Source: a virus (Duplodnaviria > Caudoviricetes). Taken from it: a DNA stretch of 64,000 bases. Within the stretch, counting starts at the first letter, position 1. Each line of letters begins with the position of its first letter. The notes beneath the pieces were generated by a model that was not told where the DNA came from, did no database searches, and saw only the letters and a list, made by a program, of their open reading frames with translations. The stretch is taken from the IMG/VR virus record IMGVR_UViG_3300030708_002798; one strand, 5' to 3'. This document shows, one piece after another, positions 24,451-62,816 of the stretch. The translations under genes were made by a program, and so were the position numbers.

Positions 24451-24535
24451 TAGGAGTAGAGAGACTTGAACTCTCACGGGCATAATGCCCAACAGATTTT
24501 AAGTCTGGTGCGTCTACCGATTCCGCCATACTCCC
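24451..24535 (-). tRNA. trnL: tRNA-Leu (anticodon UAA), long variable arm, CCA not encoded
   Basis: GGGAGTA/TACTCCT acceptor stem, TGGCGGAATCGGTAGACGC D arm, CTTAAAA anticodon loop, GTTCAAGTC T loop. Confidence 0.95.
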
Positions 24536-52469: not shown

Positions 52470-52498
52470 ATTATAAGCATAAAAAAAGGACCTGTCAA
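52470..52498 (-). promoter_or_regulatory. consensus sigma70 promoter overlapping a terminator
   Basis: TTGACA-17 bp-TATAAT. Confidence 0.8.
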
Positions 52499-52507
52499 GC
52501 AGGTCCT
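52481..52507 (-). terminator. intrinsic terminator ending the riboswitch-led transcript
   Basis: AGGACCTG-CTTGA-CAGGTCCT followed by a T run. Confidence 0.8.
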
Positions 52508-52524
52508 CTATTTACTCTATCTTC

Positions 52525-52617
52525 TCACTTAGACAGTAGAAGAATCTCCCCGTAAAGTAAGGACATTCCAGCAATACATCCCAAAGTAATTATCCCTGTG
52601 ATTTGTAGTGCTTCCAT
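52525..52617 (-). CDS. 30-aa hydrophobic peptide (MEALQITGIITLGCIAGMSLLYGEILLLSK)
   Basis: hand translation; GAGG RBS; single membrane-helix character. Confidence 0.6.
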   Translation of the reverse strand: MEALQITGIITLGCIAGMSLLYGEILLLSK

Positions 52618-52624
52618 AATTGCC

Positions 52625-52789
52625 TCACTTGACGTATGTGCGACCACGGTAGCAGAAAACACCATGTGTTTGGTCACCTGACTGCTTGCACTCATACTTT
52701 ACACCACGATATGCGGTGTGAGTAATCTGTGCATCGTGAAGTGCTGCTGCCTTTTGGATTTGCTTTTTGATTAGAGTAAGTGTGTTCAT
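52625..52789 (-). CDS. 54-aa YRG-motif peptide (DUF4278-like)
   Basis: contains AYRGVKY and CYRGRTY; lies just downstream of the riboswitch-like RNA. Confidence 0.7.
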   Translation of the reverse strand: MNTLTLIKKQIQKAAALHDAQITHTAYRGVKYECKQSGDQTHGVFCYRGRTYVK

Positions 52790-52859
52790 TTGTCGTTACC
52801 TGAAATACTAGGGTGAAATTAACCTTCTCATCTTTCGATGGATCCGTTTTCCCGTTCCT

Positions 52860-53027
52860 TCAGTCGTTTGCGTCCCAATAGTAATCACATTCTGGCACAG
52901 AGTCCTTAATGGTCTCCACTAGTTCAACTTGAATTTTAGGTTCAAGATGTTCTTGTGCCTTTATTCTGAGCATTAATGCATCAGCATCAGCACAGGTCAT
53001 AGTTGAATACAGAAGTAATTCAAGCAT
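52860..53027 (-). CDS. 55-aa ORF nested in aptamer 2 (MLELLLYSTMTC...ECDYYWDAND)
   Basis: hand translation; GGAG 10 nt upstream; resembles the 66-aa neighbour. Confidence 0.7.
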   Translation of the reverse strand: MLELLLYSTMTCADADALMLRIKAQEHLEPKIQVELVETIKDSVPECDYYWDAND

Positions 53028-53062
53028 GGGATGAACGCTCCGTTCCGCGACTTACTTGCGTC

Positions 53063-53263
53063 CTATGTATAAATACCGTCACACTGACCTTCCACCTTTG
53101 TCTTGAGATACCCAATAAGATTTAACTTTGACCGTAGGTCTAGGTTAGGATCTGCTTGGATCTCTACTCGTCTTTGGAGGAACCTTTCACAAGACATATG
53201 CCATCCGTAAGGATTGCCGTCATCATGATGGGCAAGGGTCAATGCCAACAGTATGTTTAACAT
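53063..53263 (-). CDS. 66-aa ORF nested in aptamer 1 (MLNILLALTLAHH...QCDGIYT)
   Basis: start moved downstream of the promoter; hydrophobic N-terminus; two Cys. Confidence 0.7.
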   Translation of the reverse strand: MLNILLALTLAHHDDGNPYGWHMSCERFLQRRVEIQADPNLDLRSKLNLIGYLKTKVEGQCDGIYT

Positions 53264-53282
53264 GTTGGATGAACGTAGGTCT

Positions 53283-53311
53283 ATTATAGACCGTATGTAA
53301 TATATAGTCAA
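53283..53311 (-). promoter_or_regulatory. sigma70-type promoter of the riboswitch transcript
   Basis: TTGACT-17 bp-TATAAT; CGTTC begins 8 nt after the -10. Confidence 0.8.
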
Positions 53312-62659: not shown

Positions 62660-62765
62660 AAGGGTAAGTAAAAGTACGGGGGAACGCACTGGTTAGAATA
62701 TTCCTACACCACCCTCCAGTGTAGGTATGAGAGACGTGATTTATACTCCCTAGAGGTCTCGGTTT
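62660..62765 (-). ncRNA. structured psbA 5' leader, PhotoRC-II-like motif
   Basis: GAGAC/GTCTC and CCTACAC/GTGTAGG stems, TGGAGGG loop; resembles the motif recalled from upstream of cyanophage psbA. Confidence 0.65.
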
Positions 62766-62816
62766 GTGGGGAGTTACAATAGATTAAAAAACGTTACGTT
62801 TCTTAACCCGTTGACT

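Follow-up and report, generated by a model that had tools for sequence, protein, structure and literature searches.

The glutamine-I riboswitch (glnA RNA motif, RF01739), as in the gifB/IF17 leader of Synechocystis (PMC6212724), is a P1/P2/P3 three-way junction with a loop E, assembled from a CGUUCA...CGNA-AGUA...GAA-GGAACG core. A single long-range linchpin pair (G:C) joins the third base of CGNA to the base that follows GAACG. Its P3 is a small hairpin, and its translational platform frees the ribosome site of a DUF4278/IF17-like gene downstream, DUF4278 being the class of gene found under cellular glutamine riboswitches (PMC6212724). In the glutamine-II riboswitch (Downstream-peptide motif, RF01704; PDB 6QN3, PMC6698751), the long-range pair is C:G, GGAACGG lies in the RNA's own P2 loop as part of a pseudoknot, and the RNA is tied to short DUF4278 ORFs of marine picocyanobacteria. 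glnA RNAs have been noted 'in tandem' (PMC2864571), and a riboswitch survey that recovered no more than two glutamine aptamers from the genomes of cyanophages concluded that riboswitch use is rare in phages (PMC5473149).

Other RNAs offer partial parallels. In tandem-aptamer riboswitches, such as the tandem glycine aptamers, two ligand-type cores occupy one leader and serve one expression platform. In group I and group II introns, peripheral loops can house an ORF for a homing endonuclease or a maturase, with a long-range helix that closes around the gene.

Here we describe, in a 64,000-nt stretch of viral DNA (hereafter the window), a locus at which the leader of what would be an early cyanophage operon is predicted to fold, together with the operon's first two genes, as a nested double riboswitch of the glutamine-I type (Table 1). 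The predicted RNA shares with glutamine-I the common core, the three-way junction with loop E and a single linchpin, the translational platform and the DUF4278/IF17-like gene downstream. Unlike in glutamine-I, however, P3 would lead at its far end into another core, which is circularly permuted; translated genes, one of 66 codons and one of 55, would occupy the two P2 loops, and the linchpin has the C:G form of type II. With glutamine-II the phage RNA also has in common the identical strands CGUUCAUCC, GGACGCA and GGAACGG, and an association with short DUF4278 ORFs, those of type II being from marine picocyanobacteria, which are the hosts of these phages; the helix that places GGAACGG in a P2 loop in type II is, in contrast, absent. 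Like tandem aptamers, the phage RNA has two cores ahead of one platform, but the cores are nested, they share a helix and one of them is circularly permuted. Unlike the introns, it is a metabolite-sensor-type mRNA leader rather than a ribozyme, its loop genes belong to the operon itself and encode ordinary small phage proteins, and start and stop codons lie within the closing helix. Our literature searches returned no description of translated genes inside riboswitch hairpins, nor of two sensor cores that share one helix with one of them circularly permuted.

Results

Two copies of the aptamer strands and two small genes

On the minus strand of the window, CGTTCATCC occurs at two sites (53275 and 53037), as does GACGCAA-N9-GGAACGG (53062 and 52874), and two genes (ORF1 and ORF2) lie between the motif copies. 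Shuffled sequences gave an expectation of 0.19 occurrences in the window for the first motif, and that for the second was 0.00; the four motif pieces all lie on one strand and span 424 nt. Their occurrence is not explained by chance. The motifs agree with the Rfam consensus lines of RF01739 and RF01704, as well as with CGUUCAUCC...GGACGCA...GGAACGG, published as wild-type glutamine-II (PMC6698751). The two units meet at the dinucleotide AG. In both units and both ORFs, the letters are exactly as an earlier sequence-only reading of this strand had described them, and its observation that the last codons of ORF2 double as an aptamer strand is confirmed: TGG GAC GCA AAC GAC TGA (52877-52860) is the conserved strand, and AGGAACGGG comes next.

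Table 1 Predicted features of the locus, in order of transcription; positions are those of the window.
Feature	Position	Strand	Remarks
Sigma-70-type promoter, TTGACT-17-TATAAT	53283..53311	minus	11/12 matches
Unit 1, start	53275-53267	minus	CGTTCATCC, then AAC; ORF1 ATG at 53263
Outer P1 5' strand plus A (CGUUCA)	53270..53275	minus	partner from linchpin covariation and Rfam alignments
Outer P2 5' strand	53237..53269	minus	UCC 53269-53267; AUGU 53263-53260 (ORF1 start); AUACUG 53254-53249; GCAUUGACC 53245-53237
ORF1	53063..53263	minus	66 aa; PHROG 6471; in outer P2 loop
Outer P2 3' strand	53061..53089	minus	GGUCAGUGU 53089-53081; CGGUAU 53078-53073; ACAU 53068-53065; GGA 53063-61
Unit 1, end	53065-53040	minus	ORF1 TAG 53065-53063, whose G starts GGA-CGCAAGTAAGTCGCGGAACGG, running to 53040
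Outer linking strand CGCA and loop-E 5' half AGUA	53053..53060	minus	from Rfam alignments and linchpin covariation
P3 5' strand AGUCG	53048..53052	minus	pairs with CGACU 52866-52862
Inner P1 strand GGAACGG with linchpin G53040, and capping loop AG	53038..53046	minus
Inner aptamer CGUUCA	53032..53037	minus	pairs with GAACG 53045-53041; centroid fold; nesting from linchpin covariation
Unit 2, start	53037-53028	minus	CGTTCATCCC; ORF2 ATG at 53027
Inner P2 5' strand UCCCA	53027..53031	minus	final A doubles as first base of the ORF2 ATG
ORF2	52860..53027	minus	55 aa; PHROG 504; in inner P2 loop
Inner P2 3' strand UGGGA and inner linking strand CGCA	52869..52877	minus
P3 3' strand CGACU, loop-E GAA, outer P1 3' strand GGAACG and linchpin G52852	52852..52866	minus
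Optional insert with GNRA hairpin (CAUC-GAAA-GAUG)	52816..52849	minus	only in some loci
UUUCAG, partner of CUGAAG	52798..52805	minus	overlaps weak ORF3 Shine-Dalgarno site AGGU
ORF3	52625..52789	minus	54 aa; IF17-like (DUF4278); PHROG 545
Intrinsic-terminator-like hairpin	52485..52509	minus	operon end

The comparisons show ORF1 and ORF2 to be real genes. Their dN/dS values are 0.17 and 0.25, respectively, and the entropies at the three codon positions of ORF1 are 0.57/0.41/0.97. AlphaFold2 models ORF1 as a helical hairpin (pLDDT 78) and returns a model of ORF2 with a pLDDT of 84; both products are predicted helical-hairpin proteins with cysteine pairs. Neither protein has a Pfam family, both belonging only to PHROGs of unknown function, and searches gave no notable PDB sequence match and no Foldseek match at E<=0.001. 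The two may be distant paralogues. GGAG (53041-53038) is the Shine-Dalgarno site of ORF2, and the AG linker that gives rise to it is present in 73/73 ORF2-bearing loci versus 2/89 compact loci.

The transcript is predicted to start about 1-2 nt ahead of CGUUCA; most related loci have a -10 box ending 7-8 nt upstream of CGTTCA, together with a TTGACA-like -35 element. Among the loci that have the GNRA-hairpin insert, its stem shows compensatory changes.

Related phages and naturally compact forms

The same arrangement is kept in Syn9 (gp196-gp198) and in 80 IMG/VR contigs, and a 43-nt junction was found in 297 GenBank phage records; the flanking motifs that had been picked out in the window are thus kept in its relatives. 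A scan of genome contigs for the junction with this linker sequence found it in only 6 MAG contigs, which are apparently mis-binned phage DNA. Among 162 distinct related loci, both P2 loops are compact in 72, ORF1 is combined with a compact second loop in 13, a compact first loop is combined with ORF2 in 20, and both ORFs are present in 52. The core strands are identical in all four layouts, and each ORF is present or absent independently of the other. Across approximately 200 loci whose synonymous sites have reached saturation (dS >1), the core strands CGUUCA, CGCA and GGAACGG are invariant. Phage Sf-CH5 has a gene for a homing endonuclease in yet another loop, the third.

We used the natural compact relatives as a loop-deletion test. 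As nested alignments of 87-97 nt, 8 of 14 scored above the curated gathering threshold of RF01739 (38-46 bits, the threshold being 35 bits), compared with 0 of 6 ORF-bearing relatives. Against RF01704, phage loci scored 20-32 bits (cut-off 33), with one exception at 35.4, and in these alignments the P2 columns of the model are deleted or mismatched. When the region of the window was searched against Rfam at E<=10, a single chance DsrA row was returned and nothing else; the whole window at the gathering threshold gave PhotoRC-II and a tRNA only, and searches with Syn9 and three other loci that carry both ORFs gave no relevant match. The window and the ORF-bearing forms fall below the RF01739 threshold because of the two inserts, of approximately 170-200 nt each. 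That covariance searches would miss the element had been anticipated in the sequence-only reading, and the kinship with glutamine riboswitches that it proposed is upheld by the matching strands and by the compact relatives that pass the threshold.

Covariation points to two nested cores that share P3

The explanation that we consider best, and as a whole quite probable, is a glutamine-riboswitch-like RNA with two cores, one nested within the other, that share helix P3. The comparisons show a predicted pairing of the first CGUUC with the last GAACG (outer core; its GGAACGG is at 52858-52852) and of the middle GAACG with the middle CGUUC (inner core), the inner core being, by these pairings, circularly permuted and located at the far end of P3. 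In particular, the linchpin pairs of the window are C53058:G52852 (outer) and C52870:G53040 (inner), and in 11 contigs C:G has become G:C between nested partners only: unit 1 of these contigs has CGG and their last strand is GAACGC, while their middle GAACGG and second CGC are unchanged. P3 itself, whose strands lie 180 nt apart rather than in a hairpin, covaries at a single pair, at which G:C is commonest, 14/14 A-variants with a recovered partner strand have U, and 3/3 U-variants have A. AGUA (53056-53053) and GAA (52861-52859) flank P3 as the halves of loop E only in the nested fold; the GAA is replaced by AAA in 40/162 loci, and the inner core is without a loop E. Over the full nested structure in 45 sequences, 97.1% of cells are paired, as opposed to 23-41% with the partners slid, and 0/500 shuffles reach the observed score.

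Both P1 strands, CGUUC and GAACG, are present and complementary, but invariant, so that the case for P1, and for its first-with-last partners, is made by the linchpin, P3 and loop E and not by covariation within P1. Indeed, scans for variants in riboswitch contexts returned 0 matches for GAACG(1), 32 chance matches only for CGUUC(2), and 0 matches for positions U3 and C4 of P3. The sequences compared are related and recombining, and counts of covarying sequences overstate the number of independent events.

The sequence-only reading had paired each CGTTC with the next GAACG, and so arrived at two aptamers side by side, each closing over its own ORF; independent units of this kind would each bind a glutamine of their own. 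Its two cores, with their CGUUC and GAACG strands, stand; its side-by-side units are not borne out by the linchpin and P3 covariation, the split loop E or the above-threshold Rfam alignments, all of which show the nested fold. The single-sequence minimum free energy (MFE) fold of the window RNA does contain the pairing of the first CGUUC with the first GAACG, single compact units score 23-35 bits against RF01739 or RF01704, and the first GAACG is transcribed well before the last, so that the side-by-side form may occur as a folding intermediate. However, the linchpin in the linking strand of unit 1 covaries with the last GAACG-N and not with that of its own unit, P3 would connect side-by-side units into a double pseudoknot, loop E would lack its GAA half in unit 1 and its AGUA half in unit 2, and only nested alignments clear the Rfam threshold. 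We regard two separate aptamers as quite unlikely.

Helices predicted to close around ORF1 and ORF2

In the nested fold, the outer P2 loop is predicted to hold the complete ORF1 and the inner P2 loop the complete ORF2, the closing helices being long, imperfect and formed from approximately 30 nt at either end of the gene. Next to the core, the outer P2 of the window has just 3 bp (UCC:GGA) ahead of an internal loop, and the ORF1 stop codon lies inside the 3' strand of this helix. Relatives with compact forms have short hairpins at the same sites, with a P2 of 4 bp that is 99.5-100% paired and shows 3-4 pair types per position. These hairpins, together with compensatory changes across the ORFs in related loci, bear out the placement of each ORF within a P2 loop in the sequence-only reading, which had also named such covariation as a check.

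In the outer P2, which spans ORF1, base pair 3 is C:G in 41 loci, U:A in 23 and A:U in 1 (100% paired), with at least 9 state changes on a tree built from the ORF interior. Farther into the gene, nucleotides 24 and 178 form G:C in 26 loci and C:G in 12, and the encoded amino acids change on both sides. The end-to-end duplex of ORF1 has a mean of -21.7 kcal/mol versus -8.6 for interior windows, and the two ends are each other's best partner in 62/65 loci; for ORF2 the corresponding values are -14.1 and -7.7 kcal/mol. Both the MFE and the centroid fold of the window RNA recover the two ORF-spanning helices, as well as the anti-Shine-Dalgarno helix described below. The inner P2 is nearly invariant, with one compensatory case (L038, CCCC:GGGG) and three wobbles, and an all-against-all helix scan inside ORF1 was swamped by noise from G:U pairs.

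Complementarity between the ends of an ORF might also be a relic at the DNA level, left by the terminal inverted repeats of mobile cassettes that inserted into hairpin loops, with no selection for an RNA fold. The independent coming and going of the ORFs, the endonuclease gene in the third loop of Sf-CH5 and the possible distant paralogy of ORF1 and ORF2 would all fit such an origin. Nevertheless, repeated double substitutions, some of them non-synonymous, keep the pairing despite saturated synonymous sites, and the register of the helices abuts the aptamer core, so that a DNA relic strikes us as highly improbable. The helices around ORF1 and ORF2 would instead mean that selection for RNA pairing also acts on the coding sequence, an amino-acid change on one side being matched by another 150 nt away.

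A predicted expression platform at ORF3

ORF3 is the gene under the predicted expression platform. Against DUF4278, ORF3 of the window reaches 17.7 bits, short of the cut-off of 25.3; of the downstream proteins tested, 10/10 match PF14105 (DUF4278) and nothing else, and 5/10 are above the cut-off. Aptamer strands can, by predicted pairing, mask both the ribosome site and the start codon of this gene. In particular, CUGAAG (52863-52858), which comprises the end of P3, loop E and the start of P1, can alternatively pair with UUUCAG by the ORF3 ribosome site, and GUUCAU (53274-53269) is complementary to the ORF3 start AUGAAC. Over 160 loci, the anti-Shine-Dalgarno pair is G:C in 81, G:U in 39, A:U in 40 and A.C in 0 (p=6e-16). 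The toleration of G:U and the absence of A.C are a signature of RNA rather than of DNA, and argue further against a DNA relic. Codon 2 of ORF3 is AAC in 122/130 loci, whereas AAC usage in the window's long ORFs is 30%.

Discussion

The ligand of the nested RNA is probably glutamine. We also considered that the fold might be real and its sensing of glutamine lost, the RNA acting as a protein-binding or structural coupler of three small genes or persisting as a degenerate relic of a host riboswitch. Consistent with such a loss, the window and all ORF-bearing forms are below the Rfam thresholds, the inner core has no loop E, and the third hairpin, compact in known members, is here a P3 made from distant strands. 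Against a non-sensing fold, the nucleotides seen to contact ligand in solved structures belong to the invariant core strands, the compact relatives are above-threshold members of RF01739, and the expression platform and DUF4278 cargo are as in cellular switches (PMC6212724). On balance, we think it unlikely that sensing has been lost.

In the mechanism that we propose for the nested double riboswitch, CUGAAG would pair with UUUCAG beside the ORF3 ribosome site in the absence of ligand, and GUUCAU could pair with AUGAAC. Stabilisation of the outer core by ligand would withdraw both masking strands and turn ORF3 on, as in cellular glutamine riboswitches; we lean toward this ON direction for ORF3. 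The aptamer helices would at the same time contain the start and stop codons of both ORF1 and ORF2 and the Shine-Dalgarno site of ORF2, the UGA of ORF2 (52862-52860) overlapping the GAA of loop E and the last part of P3. A single molecule would therefore be unable to fold the sensor while its nested genes are being translated, and competition of ligand binding with translation is physically likely on this predicted layout. That the phage makes regulatory use of its competition with ORF1 and ORF2 translation is a more tentative suggestion.

These considerations raise the possibility, which we consider somewhat less likely than not, of a reciprocal, translation-gated nitrogen switch in one RNA, in which the loop genes and ORF3 are oppositely regulated. 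At high glutamine the two-site sensor would shut, burying the starts of the loop genes (OFF) and freeing the ORF3 start region (ON). At low glutamine, or with ribosomes on ORF1 and ORF2, the sensor would be unable to close, and ribosomes terminating at the ORF2 stop codon, within P3 and loop E, might briefly open the ORF3 site.

Because the junction occurs in 297 GenBank phage records and genes lie inside the aptamer, the reported rarity of such riboswitches in phages would be in part an artefact of detection. The layout offers a natural system in which RNA folding and translation would compete on one molecule. It also bears on how cyanophages may read or manipulate host nitrogen status, through IF17-like homologues of glutamine synthetase inhibitors. 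If the reciprocal reading is true, the phage would sense host nitrogen and its own translation by means of one fold, whose two sites might bind cooperatively.

Layout of the locus

The window derives from a T4-like cyanomyovirus, and 421 Synechococcus/Prochlorococcus phage records match the locus, in which a glutamine-riboswitch-like RNA made of two units, each associated with one ORF, precedes ORF3. The sequence-only reading had described the sequence correctly in all details. In particular, both motifs were re-located in two copies each, with 0.19 copies of CGTTCATCC expected in 64 kb and 0.00 copies of GACGCAA-N9-GGAACGG expected in the window. A 30-codon hydrophobic ORF, MEALQITGIITLGCIAGMSLLYGEILLLSK, lies between ORF3 and the terminator (52525-52617, minus strand), and the promoter that follows (TTGACA at 52498) overlaps this terminator. 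The window also contains, on its minus strand, a PhotoRC-II RNA (62690-62786, 85.7 bits) and a tRNA (24451-24535, 57.1 bits) that is 85 nt in length and has a long variable arm.

Features of the two-unit element and its flanks
Feature	Position	Strand	Remarks
sigma-70 promoter, near-consensus, TTGACT-17-TATAAT	53311-53283	minus	ends 7 nt before CGTTCATCC
First aptamer strand, CGTTCATCC	53275-53267	minus	followed by AAC
ORF1, 66 aa	ATG 53263, stop TAG 53065-53063	minus	stop continues into GGA-CGCAAGTAAGTCGCGGAACGG
Inter-unit spacer, dinucleotide AG	between GGA-CGCAAGTAAGTCGCGGAACGG and CGTTCATCCC	minus	
Unit 2 5' strand, CGTTCATCCC	just ahead of ORF2	minus	
ORF2, 55 aa	ATG 53027	minus	final codons TGG GAC GCA AAC GAC TGA, then AGGAACGGG
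Leader, 62 nt	between AGGAACGGG and ORF3	minus	
ORF3, 54 aa	52789-52625	minus	
Terminator	52509-52485	minus	

Compact relatives place the ORFs in hairpin loops

At the level of sequence, the motifs of the element match glutamine riboswitches: wild-type glutamine-II RNA has been published as CGUUCAUCC-loop-GGACGCA...GGAACGG (PMC6698751), and the consensus of RF01739, the Rfam glutamine-I (glnA) family, reads CGUUCAuCccc-loop-gggGaCGGAAGUA-[P3]-GAAGGAACG. The window region matched no Rfam family at E<=10, and neither did the same locus in Syn9 (gp196-198) and three further phages. We assembled 80 IMG/VR loci found via ORF2, 120 more found via a short-second-unit pattern and four GenBank phages, giving 162 distinct loci that form a natural loop-deletion series: both hairpins are short in 72 loci, ORF1 alone is present in 13, ORF2 alone in 20, and both ORFs, as in the window, in 52. 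The core strands are identical across all layouts, and the short hairpins of compact loci covary freely (UCCC/GGGA, UCUCAC/GUGAGA, UCAGAG/CUCUGA, UUCGCUAUUC/GAAUAGCGAA). The curated RF01739 threshold (cut-off 35) was reached by compact relatives only, being passed by 8 of 14 loci with two short hairpins (38-46 bits) and by 0 of 6 ORF-bearing loci. These natural relatives served in place of the in silico loop deletion that the sequence-only reading had proposed, and they bear out two of its claims, namely that the ORFs sit in the loops of the hairpin following CGUUCA (P2), and that covariance scans miss the element because the ORFs fill those loops.

In one locus (L049:938-1162, IMGVR_UViG_3300021964_000021) the ORF in the outer P2 loop has 75 aa and shares only 22% identity with the usual ORF1, with closing pairs UCUU/AAGA still retained; the loop cargo is therefore exchangeable or able to diverge strongly.

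The two units are nested

The sequence-only reading had paired each CGUUC with the next GAACG, so that two aptamers would lie side by side. This pairing is wrong: Rfam alignments, P3, loop E and the linchpin (a single long-range base pair) all indicate that the units are nested, with the first CGUUC and last GAACG forming an outer core and the middle strands an inner one. Above-threshold Rfam alignments cover both units in exactly this arrangement, and in them P3 (AGU...ACU) encloses a 38-48-nt insert consisting of the middle GGAACGG and the second CGUUCA with its hairpin. P3 links the units, pairing AGUCG (53052-48) with CGACU (52866-62). At its second base, commonly G:C, a targeted scan found 17 A-variants, with U on the partner strand in 14/14 recovered, and U-variants carried a partner A in 3/3. 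The family is known to have a loop E and a one-pair pseudoknot (PMC12510878). Here the two halves of loop E lie in different units, AGUA following the first CGCA and GAA occurring only before the last GGAACG. The linchpin, in which the third base of CGN pairs with the base following GAACG (PMC6698751, PMC6212724), decides the matter, because 11 contigs with CGG in unit 1 have GAACGC as their last strand and retain the middle GAACGG and second CGC, which gives G:C and C:G pairs if the units are nested and two mismatches if they are side by side. Scans of the P1 strands returned no variants, and P1, being invariant, therefore offers no direct covariation. The side-by-side form may be a folding intermediate, since the MFE structure of the window uses it for unit 1.

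The nested inner core has the same circular order as the outer one (CGUUCA, P2, CGCA, P3, GGAACGG) and is a circular permutation of it, because its P1 is capped and its P3 open; the inner core lacks loop E.

Helices closing around the ORFs are under selection

Covariation shows that the helices closing around the ORFs are under selection. Across ORF1, in 65 loci, the third pair of outer P2 is C:G in 41, U:A in 23 and A:U in 1, and is never unpaired; the fourth is U:A in 24, C:G in 13 and A.A in 24. The ORF1 stop (TAG, TGA or TAA) belongs to the 3' strand of this helix and covaries with the 5' strand. Mapped onto a phylogeny of the ORF1 interior, the state of the pair changed at least nine times, a rough count because the tree is short and recombination likely. 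The first and last 30 nt of the ORF1 loop form duplexes averaging -21.7 kcal/mol, compared with -8.6 for interior windows and -11.2 for shuffles, and are each other's best partners in 62/65 loci; for the ORF2 loop the values are -14.1 versus -7.7, with best partners in 47/73 loci.

In an alignment of 45 ORF1/ORF2 sequences, RNAalifold paired ORF1 nt 19-27 with nt 175-183. One pair of this helix alternates between G:C (26 sequences) and C:G (12), and the swap alters both encoded residues, Leu becoming Phe at one end of the pair and Gln becoming Glu at the opposite end. Immediately 5' of the ORF1 stop lie the bases that pair with the ORF1 start codon (A:U 45/45, U:A or U:G 35/45, G:C or G:U 45/45). 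On this alignment the complete nested structure has 97.1% of cells paired, compared with 23-41% for slid partners; double changes occur at seven pairs, and 0/500 shuffles reach its score. The alignment check suggested by the sequence-only reading yielded covariation, including in the ORF-spanning helices. Inner P2 (UCCCA:UGGGA) hardly varies, since its 3' strand codes for Trp-Asp; the exceptions are a single compensatory case (L038, CCCC:GGGG) and three U.G wobbles. Both ORF-spanning helices were recovered in the MFE and centroid structures of the window RNA folded singly.

ORF1 and ORF2 are genuine genes

By evolutionary signature ORF1 and ORF2 are real genes: dN/dS is 0.17 and 0.25, respectively, variation shows codon periodicity, and lengths are conserved. 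They belong to PHROG families 6471 (ORF1) and 504 (ORF2), and AlphaFold2 predicts confident helical hairpins (pLDDT 78 and 84). Two invariant cysteines, separated by 35-36 residues, occur in each protein. The two may be distant paralogues, as their profiles align weakly over 38 columns (hhalign probability 40%, E=3e-4); family, sequence and structure searches matched neither to a known family or fold. The 2-nt spacer between units is AG in 73/73 ORF2-bearing loci versus 2/89 compact ones, and it completes a GGAG within GGAACGG-AG, ten bases 5' of the ORF2 start, which points to translation of ORF2 from a Shine-Dalgarno site inside the fold.

In Synechococcus phage Sf-CH5 (PV340852.1; L293:580-1180), a 190-aa homing endonuclease gene lies between GGAACGG-AG-CGTT and CGTTCATCCC; its insertion point is the capping loop of inner P1, with CGTT duplicated, and three loops of the RNA thus carry genes.

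Control of ORF3 and family assignment

All genes found downstream of the element encode repeated YRGV motifs. Ten of the downstream proteins, tested against Pfam, matched DUF4278 only, five above the cut-off; ORF3 of the window scored 17.7 bits, below it. Genes of this IF17-like family are switched ON by glutamine riboswitches in cells (PMC6212724).

CUGAAG (52863-58), spanning the P3 end, loop E and the first G of the P1 strand, has its complement in UUUCAG (52805-00), directly adjoining the ORF3 ribosome site; among 160 loci, the one pair that varies is G:C in 81, G:U in 39, A:U in 40 and A.C in 0 (p=6e-16). What looks like a second OFF-state helix crosses the ORF3 start codon: on the minus strand, AUGAAC (window 52784-52789) is the exact complement of GUUCAU (53269-53274) in the first aptamer strand, RNAalifold paired the two in both compact and ORF-bearing sets, and ORF3 codon 2 is AAC in 122/130 loci, compared with a 30% share of AAC among Asn codons across the long ORFs of the window. 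Both outer P1-region strands could therefore mask the ORF3 initiation site, and closing of the outer core would release them. From the geometry of the OFF pairings and the cellular precedent, we infer that this closing would switch ORF3 ON.

With P2, P3, loop E, the linchpin and DUF4278 cargo, the element is by its defining features a glutamine-I-type riboswitch with putative ligand binding. Membership of glutamine-II (RF01704) was rejected, because that family has a P2 pseudoknot hairpin whereas the element does not.

Some loci contain an optional insert (window 52816-52849, minus strand; AAACGGAUCC-AUC-GAAA-GAU-GAGAAGGUUAAUUU), whose GNRA hairpin shows compensatory stem changes (AUC/GAU, AGC/GCU, UGC/GCA, ACC/GGU) and which looks like a glutamine-I aptamer with its 3' half (ACGGA, P3, GAAGG) but no 5' half.

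Prevalence and implications for translation

Relative to the literature searched, which did not include Ames & Breaker 2011 or Ren 2015, three features are new: nested units whose inner core is permuted, complete translated genes in both P2 loops, and the prevalence in phages. A survey listed two cyanophage examples only (PMC5473149); the junction is present in 297 GenBank phage records. It also occurs in contigs L244-L249, whose bins are labelled Verrucomicrobiales, Euryarchaeota TMED129 and Nonlabens and which include a 194-kb contig of a 'Synechococcus' MAG; these are most likely cyanophage DNA mis-binned into MAGs. In one viral contig, a manA RNA (L111:1351-1540; RF01745, 173 bits) precedes a compact nested glutamine riboswitch by ~80 nt.

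The translation signals of the nested genes lie within the fold: ORF1 has its start codon and stop in outer P2; for ORF2, GGAG and AUG fall within the inner P1 cap and inner P2, and the stop falls within P3 and loop E, 2 nt upstream of the outer P1 strand. A ribosome starting or finishing either ORF would have to open the sensor, and a closed sensor would block both nested start sites. As the 5' strands are made ~170-420 nt before their partners, there would be a co-transcriptional time window for translation. The phage may use this arrangement for reciprocal control, or the nested genes may be tolerated passengers whose ends have evolved to preserve the ORF3 switch.
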